Shown: one piece after another, positions 11,767 through 55,083 of the stretch
How positions within the stretch are numbered: the first letter of the stretch is position 1
How the letters are laid out: each line of letters starts with the position of its first letter
Assembly (NCBI GenBank): GCA_963718565.1
Contig: OY970364.1
Location: 2,016,001 to 2,080,000, forward strand
Direction: 5' to 3'
Source: an uncultured Verrucomicrobiae bacterium
Lineage (GTDB): Bacteria; Chlamydiota; Chlamydiia; Chlamydiales; Rhabdochlamydiaceae
DNA length: 64,000 nt
Translations under genes and position numbers: made by a program
Notes under the pieces: generated by a model
Databases searched by the model: none
The model's input: the letters and a program-made list of their open reading frames with translations, nothing else
What the model was told of the DNA's origin: nothing

Positions 11767-12924
11767 ATGCTTAAACTTTTGAGGGAATTGCAAAACTCTT
11801 CGCCGCATAAAATCGCGCTTTTGGTACCTGTCGCCTTGGCGGCGGCTCTCCTACTTATCCAAGTATGCTTTCGCCGCCGCCAACCGAACCCGCTGTGCGG
11901 GTTTTGGCAACAGGTGCCAAAATCATCGATTTTCTGCTGGCGAGGAGTTTTGCAATTCCCTCTTTTTATTCTTTATCTTAGCACAGGATTGTTCTTTTGC
12001 CACTGCTATTCTGAAGAGTTGAGCAAGAGGGGTTTTTTTACGGATGCCGCACTCTTATATTGGAAAGCTCATGAAGCAGCTTTAAGCTTTGCGGTGGACA
12101 GTGATTCCTTGCTCAAGCTAGCTCCCCACGCTAAGGTGGAAAATCCTACGTTCGAATGGGACTTTGGTTTTAAGCTAGGCTTAGGGTACCGTTTCCCTCA
12201 TGATCGATGGAATCTTCAACTGCAATTCACCTCTTTTCAAACACACACAGACAATGAAACAAAAGCGCGCAACGGCAATGTTCTCTTTCCCCTTTGGCAA
12301 AAATCAACGACTGGCGGTCTCTTTTTTGCTGAAGAGGCCAAAGTGCATTGGCGTCTTCATCTAGGACTTGTCGATTTAACGCTGAGTAAATGTTATGAGG
12401 TATCGAAAACCTTCTTTTTGACGCCGGATGTCGGAATAAGAGCGGGATCTGTGCGACAGAAGTACTATCTTGATTATTATGGAGGAAATTTGCCGAATGG
12501 TGCAGATGAAATCATCCACATGAAGAATAAATATTTCGGTATTGGACCCAACTTAGGTCTTATAGGCCAATGGTCCTTGGGTGGGGGTTTTAGTTTGTGT
12601 GCACACAGCTTGTTCAGTGTGCTTTTTGGGGAATTTTATTTGCACCAAGATGAATATGCCGGCAAGGAAAAGCTCTTGGGAGTCCATGATATCTTTCCAT
12701 CTTCTGCGGCAATGATCGATCTTGGCGCTGGGGTTTGCTGGCAACGTTGTTTTCACGGAGCCCTTAAGCGGCTGAAATTAGAACTGGCCTGGGATGAGCT
12801 GTTGTTCTTTTCCCAGAACCAGCTTTTGCATTTTACGAGTGCAGGGGCGCCAGGAGTTTTTTTTGCAAATCAAGGAGATCTTTTCGTTTCAGGAATCGAG
12901 TTCATCATGCGTTTTGATTTTTAA
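11767..12924 (+). CDS. Lpg1974-family (MOMP-like) outer membrane pore with in-frame MITE A in its leader
   Basis: ALLYWKAHE, WDFGFKLGLGY, HDRW, SQNQ, NQGDL and C-terminal RFDF. Confidence 0.85.
   Translation: MLKLLRELQNSSPHKIALLVPVALAAALLLIQVCFRRRQPNPLCGFWQQVPKSSIFCWRGVLQFPLFILYLSTGLFFCHCYSEELSKRGFFTDAALLYWKAHEAALSFAVDSDSLLKLAPHAKVENPTFEWDFGFKLGLGYRFPHDRWNLQLQFTSFQTHTDNETKARNGNVLFPLWQKSTTGGLFFAEEAKVHWRLHLGLVDLTLSKCYEVSKTFFLTPDVGIRAGSVRQKYYLDYYGGNLPNGADEIIHMKNKYFGIGPNLGLIGQWSLGGGFSLCAHSLFSVLFGEFYLHQDEYAGKEKLLGVHDIFPSSAAMIDLGAGVCWQRCFHGALKRLKLELAWDELLFFSQNQLLHFTSAGAPGVFFANQGDLFVSGIEFIMRFDF
11781..11962 (+). mobile_element. MITE family A, short form (182 bp), in frame
   Basis: TIRs present; TTTT duplication; 186 bp net = 62 codons. 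Confidence 0.9.
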
Positions 12925-14468
12925 ACTTCGTCGCTGACAAACCCGCGGCGACGCAGGAAAAGAGTGAGTGCGAAGATCACAGCCATTCCTATCAAGAGCA
13001 TCCCCATCAGATAAAAACAATCATCTAGGGCCAAAGAAATCGATTCTCGTTGCAAAAAGTATTCGAGCTGGGCATTTGCGGTTTCACCGTGCAGGTCAAT
13101 CTGCGCGGCTTTAGAAAAAAATTCTTGCGTTTCTGGAGATAATACGGTGAGTTTACTCCCTAATCGATCATGGTAGAAGACTTGCCTGCGCAGCCATATC
13201 GTCGTGTAGATCGAAGCGCCAAGGCCGCTGGCCAAGGCACGGACAACTTGAAATAAGCTGAGGACGTGAATGTGGTTTTCCTTAGGGAAATTATGAAAGG
13301 AGATCCTAAAAATCGGAGCCAGGAAAAAGGCCAGGCCAATTCCTGCGAGGATTCTTGAGAAGGCAATCCTTCCAAAATTGATGTCGACGTTGAAGAGCAT
13401 GGTGTGAAAGCAGGAAATTGCCAAAAAAACGATCGAAATCGCTAGAAAAATACGGTTGTCCATTTTACGTATTTTTTCATCGATAAGAAACATCGGAAAC
13501 ACGCCTGAAAACGCCATCGTCCCGATGAGAAGCGCTATCCAGTCTGGGGTGTATTTTACCCAAAGGTTTAGCCATAATGCTAAGAGGATAACCATTCCAA
13601 AATAAGCGGAAAATAAAATGGTGAGATTGAAAAGGGCAAAAGAAAAATAAGGGTTTTTTAGCATGCGGAGATAGAGAATCGGAGTGGGATGATGGAATTC
13701 CCAGATGATAAAATAAATCAGGGATAAAATTCCGAGAACTGCAAGTGTGATGATTAGAGGAGAGCGAAACCAATCTAATTGCTGGCCAGTTGTGAGGACA
13801 GAGCCTAGGCAAAGTACGCCGATAGAAAAAGAGAGATAGCCGATGAGATCAAAAGAGGAGTTTTGATTGGGTGGCTTGTGGGAGTCAAATCCTTTGAGTC
13901 GACGCCAAAGACAAAAGGCCAAGAAGAGTTGCAAGGGAAGATCGAAATAAAAGATCCAGCGCCAGTTCCATTCATAAGCAATCCAGCCTCCCCAACACGC
14001 TCCGATCACTGGACTCATTGTGAAAATCGATAGGGTGATCGAAGTAAACAGGCCGCGCTTTTCAGCGGGGACAAGTTTTGCGTTTAAATAAAAGATCAAG
14101 GCATAAAAAGGGCCGCAGGAAAATCCCTGTAAAAATCGCACAGCGATGAAAAAGGGATAGTTAGGGGCAATGGCACAGACTAAAGAGAGAAGACAAAAAA
14201 GAAGCATGCCAAACACTAAACATTTTGCTGTTCCAAATTTATCGACGCATGTTCTTCCTAAGGGAATGCCCAGAGCATTTCCTAAAGCAAAAAAAGTGAC
14301 TGTATAACTAGCAATGTCATTGCTGCCTCCCAAATCTCCGACGATATAAGGAGTGGCCATGATTGTGAGCGTGTAATTAAAAATGACGGTAAATAAAGAG
14401 AAAAAGAGAGCGGTGTATAAAAAATTGTCCGGCGGGCGTTTAAGGCATGCGGTTATTGAGCTGTTCAT
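12921..14468 (-). CDS. emrB: EmrB/QacA-type DHA2 MFS efflux permease
   Basis: Many TM segments; RFLQG, WRWIF, GQQLDWFRS motifs. Confidence 0.85.
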   Translation of the reverse strand: MNSSITACLKRPPDNFLYTALFFSLFTVIFNYTLTIMATPYIVGDLGGSNDIASYTVTFFALGNALGIPLGRTCVDKFGTAKCLVFGMLLFCLLSLVCAIAPNYPFFIAVRFLQGFSCGPFYALIFYLNAKLVPAEKRGLFTSITLSIFTMSPVIGACWGGWIAYEWNWRWIFYFDLPLQLFLAFCLWRRLKGFDSHKPPNQNSSFDLIGYLSFSIGVLCLGSVLTTGQQLDWFRSPLIITLAVLGILSLIYFIIWEFHHPTPILYLRMLKNPYFSFALFNLTILFSAYFGMVILLALWLNLWVKYTPDWIALLIGTMAFSGVFPMFLIDEKIRKMDNRIFLAISIVFLAISCFHTMLFNVDINFGRIAFSRILAGIGLAFFLAPIFRISFHNFPKENHIHVLSLFQVVRALASGLGASIYTTIWLRRQVFYHDRLGSKLTVLSPETQEFFSKAAQIDLHGETANAQLEYFLQRESISLALDDCFYLMGMLLIGMAVIFALTLFLRRRGFVSDEV

Positions 14469-54103: not shown

Positions 54104-55083
54104 GGGAGAGGCTTAAGGGATTTTTTTAGCGCATATTCTTTGAGTGTTTCTGATAAACGCGAAAACTCTTTTTCTTTTTTGATCCAAATCGTCGTTCCTT
54201 GGCCATGAGAAATGTGGATCTCTTCATAATCAGCAGGGGTGGCAATGCGAGAATATCCATACACATCACCCTGCAAACCTAGCGCACGTCTTTCCGTGTC
54301 ATGCGCCACGATCACAGAAACTTTGTGAAAGAGAAGCTGCACTAGGTCTCCGCGAAGGTATAGACCCGGATCGACAAATGCACAATCGATGCGGTGGCAT
54401 TTGACGAGATTTGTGATAAAGGCATCCAGTTCAATCAAGTAAAAGTTGTCAATTAAGGAGTAATCTTTATGAAAGCTAGTTTGATAGGAACATGCTTTAT
54501 AGACGTGTTCTGACCCAAAGTATTTGTAAGGAGCACGGCTATCATCTACTTTTCGATAGCTAAGATAAGCAATGGGAATCCAATTGGTATAGTCTGAATA
54601 GAGATTGAGACAATGGTTCATCCAGTCAGGTCCATAACCGTCTGTGATAAATTCCACGGAAATGACTTTATAGCAACAATCTAAGAAATATTTTGTGGAA
54701 AATCCCAGTCCAAATTCCAACAACGTTCGTACGTTATACGCGTTGAATATTTCATGAAAATGAGAGATATGATCTGTGTATCCGCCACGGTCTCCTTGCT
54801 CGAGAAGCCATTCGTAGGTGATTTCTTCTGCGTCGGTGATGCTATCATTAGCAAAAACAGATGTATGCAAGCTGAGGATCAGTATTATAAAACAAATTAT
54901 ACCGAAACAGCATGAAGAATCGGTTTTTGGCTGCGCTGAACATCCCAGATTTTGATCCCGGCTGTATCGCACAACTTGTTCAAGTTGTGCTGCTTCGCCG
55001 CCGCTTCGCTGGTTCAAACTCCGGGCGCCAGCTTTGCCAAAATTTCGATTCTTCATGCTGTTTCGGTATACAAACTTCTTCAT
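54100..55083 (-). CDS. secreted methyltransferase-like protein with in-frame MITE C in its leader
   Basis: LLEFGLGFST, VISVE, FVDP, VAHDT suggest a Rossmann MTase-like fold. Confidence 0.55.
   Translation of the reverse strand: MKKFVYRNSMKNRNFGKAGARSLNQRSGGEAAQLEQVVRYSRDQNLGCSAQPKTDSSCCFGIICFIILILSLHTSVFANDSITDAEEITYEWLLEQGDRGGYTDHISHFHEIFNAYNVRTLLEFGLGFSTKYFLDCCYKVISVEFITDGYGPDWMNHCLNLYSDYTNWIPIAYLSYRKVDDSRAPYKYFGSEHVYKACSYQTSFHKDYSLIDNFYLIELDAFITNLVKCHRIDCAFVDPGLYLRGDLVQLLFHKVSVIVAHDTERRALGLQGDVYGYSRIATPADYEEIHISHGQGTTIWIKKEKEFSRLSETLKEYALKKSLKPLP
54898..55070. mobile_element. MITE family C, in frame
   Basis: TATACCGAAACAGCATG ... CATGCTGTTTCGGTATA; 171 bp net = 57 codons. Confidence 0.92.

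Follow-up and report, generated by a model that had tools for sequence, protein, structure and literature searches.

Among described systems in which a miniature inverted-repeat transposable element (MITE) becomes part of a reading frame, the Rickettsia palindromic elements (RPEs; Ogata et al. 2000, 2002) are given as the extreme of in-frame fusion in the accessible portion of a 2024 MITE review (PMC10969869), a portion in which the words 'signal' and 'Chlamydia' do not occur. Here we describe palindromic MITEs that lie in frame within the predicted signal peptides of three genes in a 64-kb stretch of the genome of an uncultured Rhabdochlamydiaceae bacterium (contig OY970364.1, positions 2,016,001 to 2,080,000; hereafter the window), together with the leader insertions found across the whole of that genome. 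As far as the accessible sources describe RPEs, the likeness is close: both are palindromic repeats of ~100–260 bp, belong to several families, reside in an obligate intracellular bacterium and occur as many in-frame copies in unrelated genes, as apparent translational fusions with functional hosts. However, the two are probably not related in sequence and the present elements come from another phylum, the Chlamydiota; we therefore claim likeness and not membership. Here the ends, the target duplications and, for one family (A), an insertion sequence (IS) partner are also evident. RPEs are described as lying in surface regions of mature proteins, whereas the dominant niche here is the N-terminal region of the signal peptide. 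The phenomenon is thus RPE-like, with a new positional bias.

Two further groups of repeats are close enough to merit comparison. In the enterobacterial repeat units RU-1/RU-2, which are ERIC-like, a hydrophobic repeat frame is likewise tied to membrane or exported open reading frames (ORFs), but the accessible part of that report (Delihas 2007, PMC2759123) deals with single cases, mostly small hypothetical ORFs whose N-terminus is supplied by the repeat. In contrast, the present insertions recur in leaders that already existed in conserved genes, and they are backed by relatives with empty sites and by statistics over the whole genome. IS-derived MITEs such as Correia/NEMIS, Nezha and QMITE1 of Coxiella (described in part in the accessible text of PMC10969869) resemble the present elements in their inverted ends, target duplications, high copy number, lack of a transposase, likely dependence on an IS acting in trans and stable RNA hairpins when transcribed; most are intergenic and have been studied for promoter, terminator or RNase III effects. 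Abundant transposable elements are reported for one Rhabdochlamydia, in a paper whose accessible part makes no mention of MITEs in genes (PMC9997750). Literature searches on MITEs or RPEs with signal peptides and on chlamydial MITEs, covering openly accessible papers, returned no description of the pattern, and an earlier note on the window, made from its sequence, had likewise known of no chlamydial equivalent.

Coordinates given without prefix for the window are positions in the 64-kb stretch, and those prefixed G000 refer to the whole source genome, a single contig of 2,284,058 bp with 43.6% G+C, which its protein relatives assign to the Chlamydiota. The earlier note had proposed stop-free, in-frame inserts of 62, 87 and 57 codons, entering at codons 5–8, in genes for a porin, a glycosyltransferase family 92 (GT92) protein and a protein of no assigned family (the C-bearing gene). 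All three were recovered where it had placed them (Table 1): after MLKL, in codon 8 of MLRKSGLS and in codon 5 after MKKF, respectively. In the porin gene the element is flanked by the target duplication TTTT (11777–11780 and 11963–11966), giving a net insert of 182+4 = 186 nt, or 62 codons, with no stop in the gene's frame; the ORF reads MLKL, 62 element-encoded residues and then FILYLSTGLFFCHCYS. The GT92 gene, whose likely start is the ATG at 34845, has a duplicated TATC (34864–34867 and 35125–35128) and a net insert of 261 nt (87 codons), again free of in-frame stops, and its product reads MLRKSGLS, 87 residues and LWISLFFVFSCAFVQA. In the C-bearing gene a TA duplication would make the net insert 171 nt (57 codons); it has no stop in frame, and the layout is MKKF, 57 residues and ICFIILILSLHTSVFA. 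In all three genes the insert separates the basic start of the predicted signal peptide from its hydrophobic core. Downstream of them, the porin covers positions 12–278 of the 281 in its Pfam profile and the GT92 protein positions 2–237 of 249.

The porin and GT92 inserts belong to family A. A scan for its 24-bp inverted ends (up to 4 mismatches) gave 217 end matches and 71 end-paired copies genome-wide, of which 51 are flanked by identical 4-bp sequences, mostly T- or A-rich (TTAA, TAAA, TTTA). The pairs fall into size classes of 47–80, 111, ~136, 182 (24 copies), 257 (8 copies) and 258–259 bp (11 copies). The longest classes (A-long) differ from the 182-bp form (A-short) by replacement of 5 central bases with ~80 bases. 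Outside the window, a 1740-bp IS with TGAA/TGAA flanks (G000 1624273–1626012) shares its 18 terminal bases with family A, and its 403-aa product is a transposase of the ISAs1 family (NF033564, 274 bits; Pfam DDE_Tnp_1_assoc and DDE_Tnp_1). Family A is therefore a MITE, and the 1740-bp element its plausible partner. The ISAs1 family usually gives a duplication of 8–10 bp, and the 4 bp seen with this partner is shorter.

Family C, found in the third gene, was sought with a C-type scan (ends complementary over 22 nt, up to 5 mismatches), which gave 38 end pairs with 37 distinct left ends. Its members are 173–174 bp long with TATACC...GGTATA ends and form at least three subfamilies. Each end carries a TA, which fits a putative TA duplication. 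Pairs of ends separated by up to 4 kb yielded no partner IS for family C; a candidate at window 25019–26637 turned out to be two small copies flanking a transporter gene. The earlier note spoke of two unrelated families. This holds for the ends and target duplications, which differ between A and C, the sole similarity being a weak internal match of 39 nt (79%, E 0.001 in a two-sequence BLAST); further families (D, G) and nested copies are also involved. Besides A and C, the genome contains many other MITE families, among them D (164 bp), E, F and G (171 bp), making 385 MITE-like intervals in all, which occupy 2.4% of the genome and at 47 to 335 bp are too small for a transposase. Single-linkage clustering fused all of the families through the nested copies, and a stricter clustering was used. 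As RNA, the window A-short copy folds into a hairpin of −119.5 kcal/mol (z −13.5) and the family C copy into one of −102.7 kcal/mol (z −9.0), with 0/200 shuffles as stable in either case.

That these genes would have ordinary leaders without the element, as the earlier note argued, is borne out by relatives of all three. The closest porin relatives (P0002–P0005; 323 aa, 79–84% identical) have no insert and start MFRFFILYLSTG / MFRFFILYLSTGLFFCHCYS, and porin relatives from the same genus (L011, L007) also have uninterrupted leaders. The GT92 relative L013 starts MLKRLGTFLLLF, with no insert, and the leaders of L005 and L006, relatives of the C-bearing gene, are uninterrupted. The same was found for relatives of the hosts at G000 1182912, 1910986 and 1736469, so that the comparison with empty-site relatives extends to 6 host genes. 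Host genes L019 and L025 had no relatives in five same-genus genomes; L079 matches L025. Metagenome contigs from four DNA runs, covering window 3300–23200, were short pieces that break at repeats, and none spans an empty site. As a side observation, the porin relative L011 (G005:C1:216433-217378) consists of two adjacent open frames of 232 and 135 aa and may be frameshifted.

One leader insertion is found in two lineages. The gluconolactonase-like orthologue in L079, from a metagenome-assembled genome, has a short A copy whose nucleotide position and orientation match those of the insert in the host gene here. The mature parts are 90.7% identical, with a synonymous divergence (dS) of 0.58, a non-synonymous divergence (dN) of 0.043 and dN/dS of 0.074. 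More distant relatives (L080, L081) have no insert. Comparison of the two copies (L079 1527–1710 and G000 1018889–1019145) also shows that differences at the ends match on both arms (GAGCC... and ...GGCTC), and therefore that the palindrome was kept, a possible sign of concerted evolution or of selection acting on the hairpin. Related insertions occur further afield. The porin relative P0038 (47% identical) has an A-like leader insert of its own, with ~30 intermediate relatives lacking one; P0088, a relative of a lipoprotein host with MORN repeats, has an A-like insert in the other orientation, 4 residues away; and L066, from another genus, has one after MNRIWS. In total, A-like elements were found in 11 of the 81 genomes of the family, source genome included.

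We then took a census of the whole genome with a gene set of crude ORF and codon-usage calls (1821 genes, 84.6% coding), in which the longest ORF was always taken. The 385 MITE intervals divide into 272 intergenic, 62 overlapping a gene end and 51 wholly inside a predicted gene, and 39 of the last group lie within 60 codons of the predicted start. Manual classification assigned 18 insertions to leaders, the criteria being that a start codon and a short peptide precede the element, that hydrophobic sequence follows it within ~11 residues and that no ATG lies between. Approximately 13 other near-start copies are probably upstream of the true start, because the gene set takes the longest ORF. An apparent insertion bias toward 5′ ends was dropped, since the same start rule distorts the distances. 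The leader hosts, which have complete Pfam domains and are of kinds typical of the cell envelope, include a solute-binding protein, an Fe/Mn superoxide dismutase, two FKBP-type isomerases and an MFS transporter, as well as a gluconolactonase-like protein, a D-Ala-D-Ala carboxypeptidase, the MORN lipoprotein, glycosyltransferases, NamZ and the porin; PBP2 is also among the host genes found whole. Elsewhere, in-frame N-terminal inserts occur in cytosolic proteins, namely a SET-domain protein, an oligopeptide ABC ATPase, an RluA-type protein, TsaB and TsaE; one in-frame copy lies directly behind a TolC-like leader, and mid-gene or C-terminal copies are found in frame in a chorismate-binding enzyme, the MutY linker, an FtsX-like permease, a DUF455 protein, a TPS-domain protein and MarC.

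The leader zone, taken as the N-terminal region of the signal peptide plus three residues, comprises 14,163 bp, or 0.80% of coding DNA, and yet receives 18 of ~38 in-gene inserts (binomial P 5e-28). The earlier note had called for a test against target availability. Weighting by family A target 4-mers raises the zone to only 0.89%, and target availability therefore does not explain the bias. By our heuristic, a leader-like N-terminus is present at the longest start in 306 of 1676 genes (18.3%), and at any start within 50 codons in 445 of 1676 (26.6%). Against this 27% background, 18 of the 24 N-terminal in-gene inserts lie in leaders (P 1.3e-6). Copies just upstream of genes, by an unscripted reading, adjoin leader-bearing genes in ~15 of 50 cases, near the 18–27% background.

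We think it probable that these elements are translated passengers in a leader that is later discarded, sorted by purifying selection, and regard this as the best explanation. MITEs would land in the first codons of genes for exported proteins, and the insert would be translated as an extra stretch of the N-terminal region of the signal peptide, with the original start codon, hydrophobic core and cleavage site all remaining. The extra 57–87 net basic residues would stay in the cytoplasm and be discarded with the leader, and the mature protein would therefore be unchanged. The concentration in leaders would arise mainly from purifying selection, inserts elsewhere in genes being mostly removed, and selection would also remove inserts that are not a multiple of three, that bear stops or whose charge or hydrophobicity is unsuited. 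The safe harbour suggested in the earlier note is supported by the intact hosts, by insert rules of the kind that translation would impose and by the constraint on the gluconolactonase-like gene.

These rules are apparent at several levels. For family A, 16 of 44 copies with a net insert divisible by three lie in genes compared with 0 of 27 others (P 2e-4), and for C-type elements the figures are 7/11 and 1/26 (P 2e-4), the one exception being in an ORF of 146 aa that has no Pfam match. No convincing in-gene copy belongs to the families that lack an open frame (C2, E, F). Moreover, no out-of-frame leader insertion was seen in 50 pairings of an intergenic copy with a gene 5′ end, as a stop or the gene's own start always lies between element and gene. 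Genome-wide, the intragenic copies are thus in frame and biased toward leaders, and not random in frame or position. Charge and hydrophobicity matter as well. The net charge of all 18 leader inserts is +3 to +15, and acidic family G has 0 of 6 in-gene copies in leaders compared with 18 of 30 for the basic families (P 0.019). The hydrophobic frame of family A, a 20-residue stretch followed by RRRQ, occurs 9 times in leaders and never elsewhere in genes, whereas its two hydrophilic frames occur 5 times in leaders and 8 times elsewhere (P 0.0055; 2002/167960 = 0.012 by hand calculation when two doubtful ORFs, G000 2417 and 1090436, are left out).

These rules also bear on the suggestion, made in the earlier note, that the insert is bypassed or removed at the RNA level. 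Here the hairpin would be cut from the mRNA, or the ribosome would hop between the target duplications in the style of T4 gene 60, restoring the original leader. The sole point in its favour is that the hairpin is flanked by identical 4-bp repeats that could act as take-off and landing sites. However, if the insert were cut out or hopped over, its length, stops, charge and hydrophobicity would not matter, and all four are filtered. In particular, removal is not supported, because precise removal would leave length and stops without effect, and yet A copies with a net insert not divisible by three are absent from genes and families without an open frame have no convincing genic copy. The bypass distance in T4 gene 60 is 50 nt, far short of the 171–261 nt required here. 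Moreover, bypass of that kind does not require the skipped segment to be open or its length to be divisible by three, and these inserts are both; nor does any Rfam family match within the window. We consider removal or hopping extremely improbable.

A second alternative is that the upstream start is not used, translation beginning inside or after the element, or that the genes have been freshly inactivated and their open frames are incidental. The hydrophobic A frame does contain in-frame GTG and TTG codons near its 3′ end, the ends of family D contain ATG, and the inserts are young, with 1–7 differences from their own consensus. However, the two hydrophilic A frames have no ATG, GTG or TTG and are also found in leaders (G000 487130, 1797198, 1910986); the lipoprotein leader at 1797198 needs read-through for this reason. 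Dead genes would accept out-of-frame or stop-containing inserts, and none was seen, while the host genes are full length with complete domains. The gluconolactonase-like gene is under constraint with the insert present in both lineages, and its copy at 1018889 has −1 and +1 indels ~80 nt apart that restore the frame. An unused start or recent inactivation is therefore very unlikely.

Several points weigh against translated passengers sorted by purifying selection. The leader call was manual and not blind, and rested on a hydrophobicity and charge heuristic rather than on SignalP. The frame test is partly circular, as an insert that is not a multiple of three cannot sit within one ORF, and the 50 pairings address this for 5′ ends only. 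Genic copies have 16 non-synonymous to 6 synonymous changes, compared with 37 to 24 for intergenic copies read in the same frame. This lack of constraint on the peptide fits a passenger, yet it gives no positive sign of translation. The hydrophobic A frame would add a second membrane-like segment to the pre-protein, and hairpins of −100 to −120 kcal/mol so close to the start codon should hinder translation. Finally, we infer that the long pre-proteins are made, exported and cleaved, and the dependence on these three steps counts on the same side. Selection for open frames at the level of the family was considered and rejected, the elements being no more open than dinucleotide shuffles (P 0.03 to 1.0).

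The remaining adverse points bear on whether the leader position is favoured and not just tolerated, either by a transposase preference near the basic/hydrophobic junction or by a benefit to the cell, such as the tuning of envelope-protein translation or mRNA stability through a 5′ hairpin, or a useful membrane segment. The leader zone holds ~10 A copies compared with 55 in intergenic DNA, where a ratio of 0.046 is expected from length and 0.026 from a 24-bp target model. The density per bp is thus ~5 times that of intergenic DNA (P about 5e-4 to 8e-4), which tolerance alone explains only if much intergenic DNA is itself constrained. This ratio is biased, because copies in intergenic DNA break down into fragments and such DNA does not evolve neutrally. 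Moreover, leaders are not enriched by the target 4-mers or by the 24-bp model, a reading by eye finds no surplus of leader-bearing genes beside copies immediately upstream, and both the unconstrained peptide and the ordinary frequency of open frames argue against a selected product. On the other side, the very stable hairpins begin ~14 nt past the start codon, and the same leaders have been hit in other organisms (P0038, P0088 and, in another genus, L066). On balance we find it rather unlikely that the position is favoured.

Two features of family A fit a favoured position and have a further possible cause. The 257-bp type is in genes in 7 of 9 cases compared with 0 of 17 for the 258/259-bp type (P 5e-5); survival of the 257-bp type as an older class was rejected, as its ages are similar to those of the intergenic type. 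The element has also diverged slowly from its counterpart in L079, with ~20% of aligned positions differing by an estimate made by eye compared with 40% at synonymous sites (95.5/236.5). However, both the slow divergence and the gene-confined type could result from gene conversion between copies, and gene conversion together with selection for the multiple-of-three allele in genes would explain the 257-bp pattern. The 1018889 copy differs from the consensus of its own genome at 2 positions despite an insertion site common to L079, for which gene conversion and independent re-insertion at the same site are alternatives. A bolder proposal is that the coding-compatible A class (the 182-bp form and the 257-bp type) is a mobile N-terminal module, selected in leaders and homogenised by gene conversion, although we judge this unlikely. 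If it were true, the hydrophobic frame would add a membrane segment and a basic loop before the original leader, all frames would place a hairpin of −100 to −120 kcal/mol after the start codons of envelope proteins, and a set of exported proteins would come under one post-transcriptional or export control.

Translated passengers in the leader, the explanation that we prefer, would have consequences beyond this genome. With no fewer than 18 leader insertions, drawn from several unrelated MITE families, a single genome provides a statistical sample in which selection is seen to sort transposons by their length, stop content, charge and hydrophobicity. On this evidence, 27–95 extra residues could be accommodated in the N-terminal region of a signal peptide; natural inserts would mark the tolerance of the Sec machinery and offer ready material for tests of very long N-terminal regions. 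Automatic gene calling and signal-peptide prediction will go wrong on such genes, giving wrong starts and missed leaders. As the pattern also occurs in relatives of other genera, leaders may be a general refuge for coding MITEs, an idea that we did not find stated in the openly accessible papers searched.

Table 1. Host genes, MITE copies and related features. Positions are those of the window, except where the prefix G000 marks coordinates of the source genome.
Feature	Position	Strand	Details
Porin gene	11767..12924	+	Legionella_OMP PF05150, 4.1e-23; A-short insert after codon 4
A-short MITE in porin gene	11781..11962	+	182 bp, forward to gene, hydrophobic frame
GT92 gene	34830..36011	+	Pfam PF01697, 1.6e-31; A-long insert in codon 8
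A-long MITE in GT92 gene	34868..35124	+	257-bp type; A-short with 75-nt net central addition
C-bearing gene	54100..55083	-	Family not assigned (no Pfam match); family C insert in codon 5
Family C (subfamily C1) MITE in C-bearing gene	54898..55070	-	173 bp, ends TATACC...GGTATA
Intergenic A-short copy on GT92 stop codon	36013..36194	+	Target duplication TAAT includes TAA
C1 copy in Rce1-like membrane protein gene (3829..4899, -)	4504..4676	-	In frame, between hydrophobic segments
A-long copy nested in family D element	42346..42602	+	257 bp; open frame into large exported repeat protein
Intergenic A-long copy	62079..62336	+	258-bp type (not a multiple of three); upstream of minus-strand signal-peptide gene
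In-gene family G copies	G000 531486, 611945, 762020, 998667, 1144613, 1633036

Of the other copies in the window, the one at 42346..42602 is ambiguous, lying either upstream of a leader or inside it, while the signal-peptide gene near the copy at 62079..62336 has its own start codon. Nesting of A inside D was observed at G000 1736465–1736747, G000 1250425–1250621 and window 42284–42606, and these nested copies stay open in frame before the signal-peptide cores of a D-Ala-D-Ala carboxypeptidase, an FKBP-type protein and the large repeat protein. On the 3′ side of the nested MITEs, at window ~43400–44100, a long ORF with collagen-like repeats is open in several frames on both strands.

The copy on the GT92 stop codon belongs to a wider pattern, in which 19 of 48 distances from family A copies to gene 3′ ends are 0–14 bp after the stop codon. 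Stop codons are themselves preferred family A targets, because in the GT92 case the TAA is part of the duplicated target. Family G (171 bp) has an acidic frame (LYRAQEGFVNLDSARQSTIEACGPNDEAIVKTMTEEEDRLGK...) and its in-gene copies lie in frame mid-gene, C-terminally or behind a leader, in the manner of RPEs. A piece of ~75–80 nt is found at the exact centre of A copies, giving A-long (window 34935–35014), and of G copies, giving the long G forms at G000 762020–762249 and 1633036–1633264. The same piece also occurs alone in same-genus genomes (matches to query 77–147 only) and resembles a small element with a preference for inserting at the tips of other palindromes. Lastly, 16-mers present at least 4 times cover 267,390 bp, or 11.7% of the genome, which is high for an obligate intracellular bacterium and includes a tandem gene family near G000 1892400–1895650.

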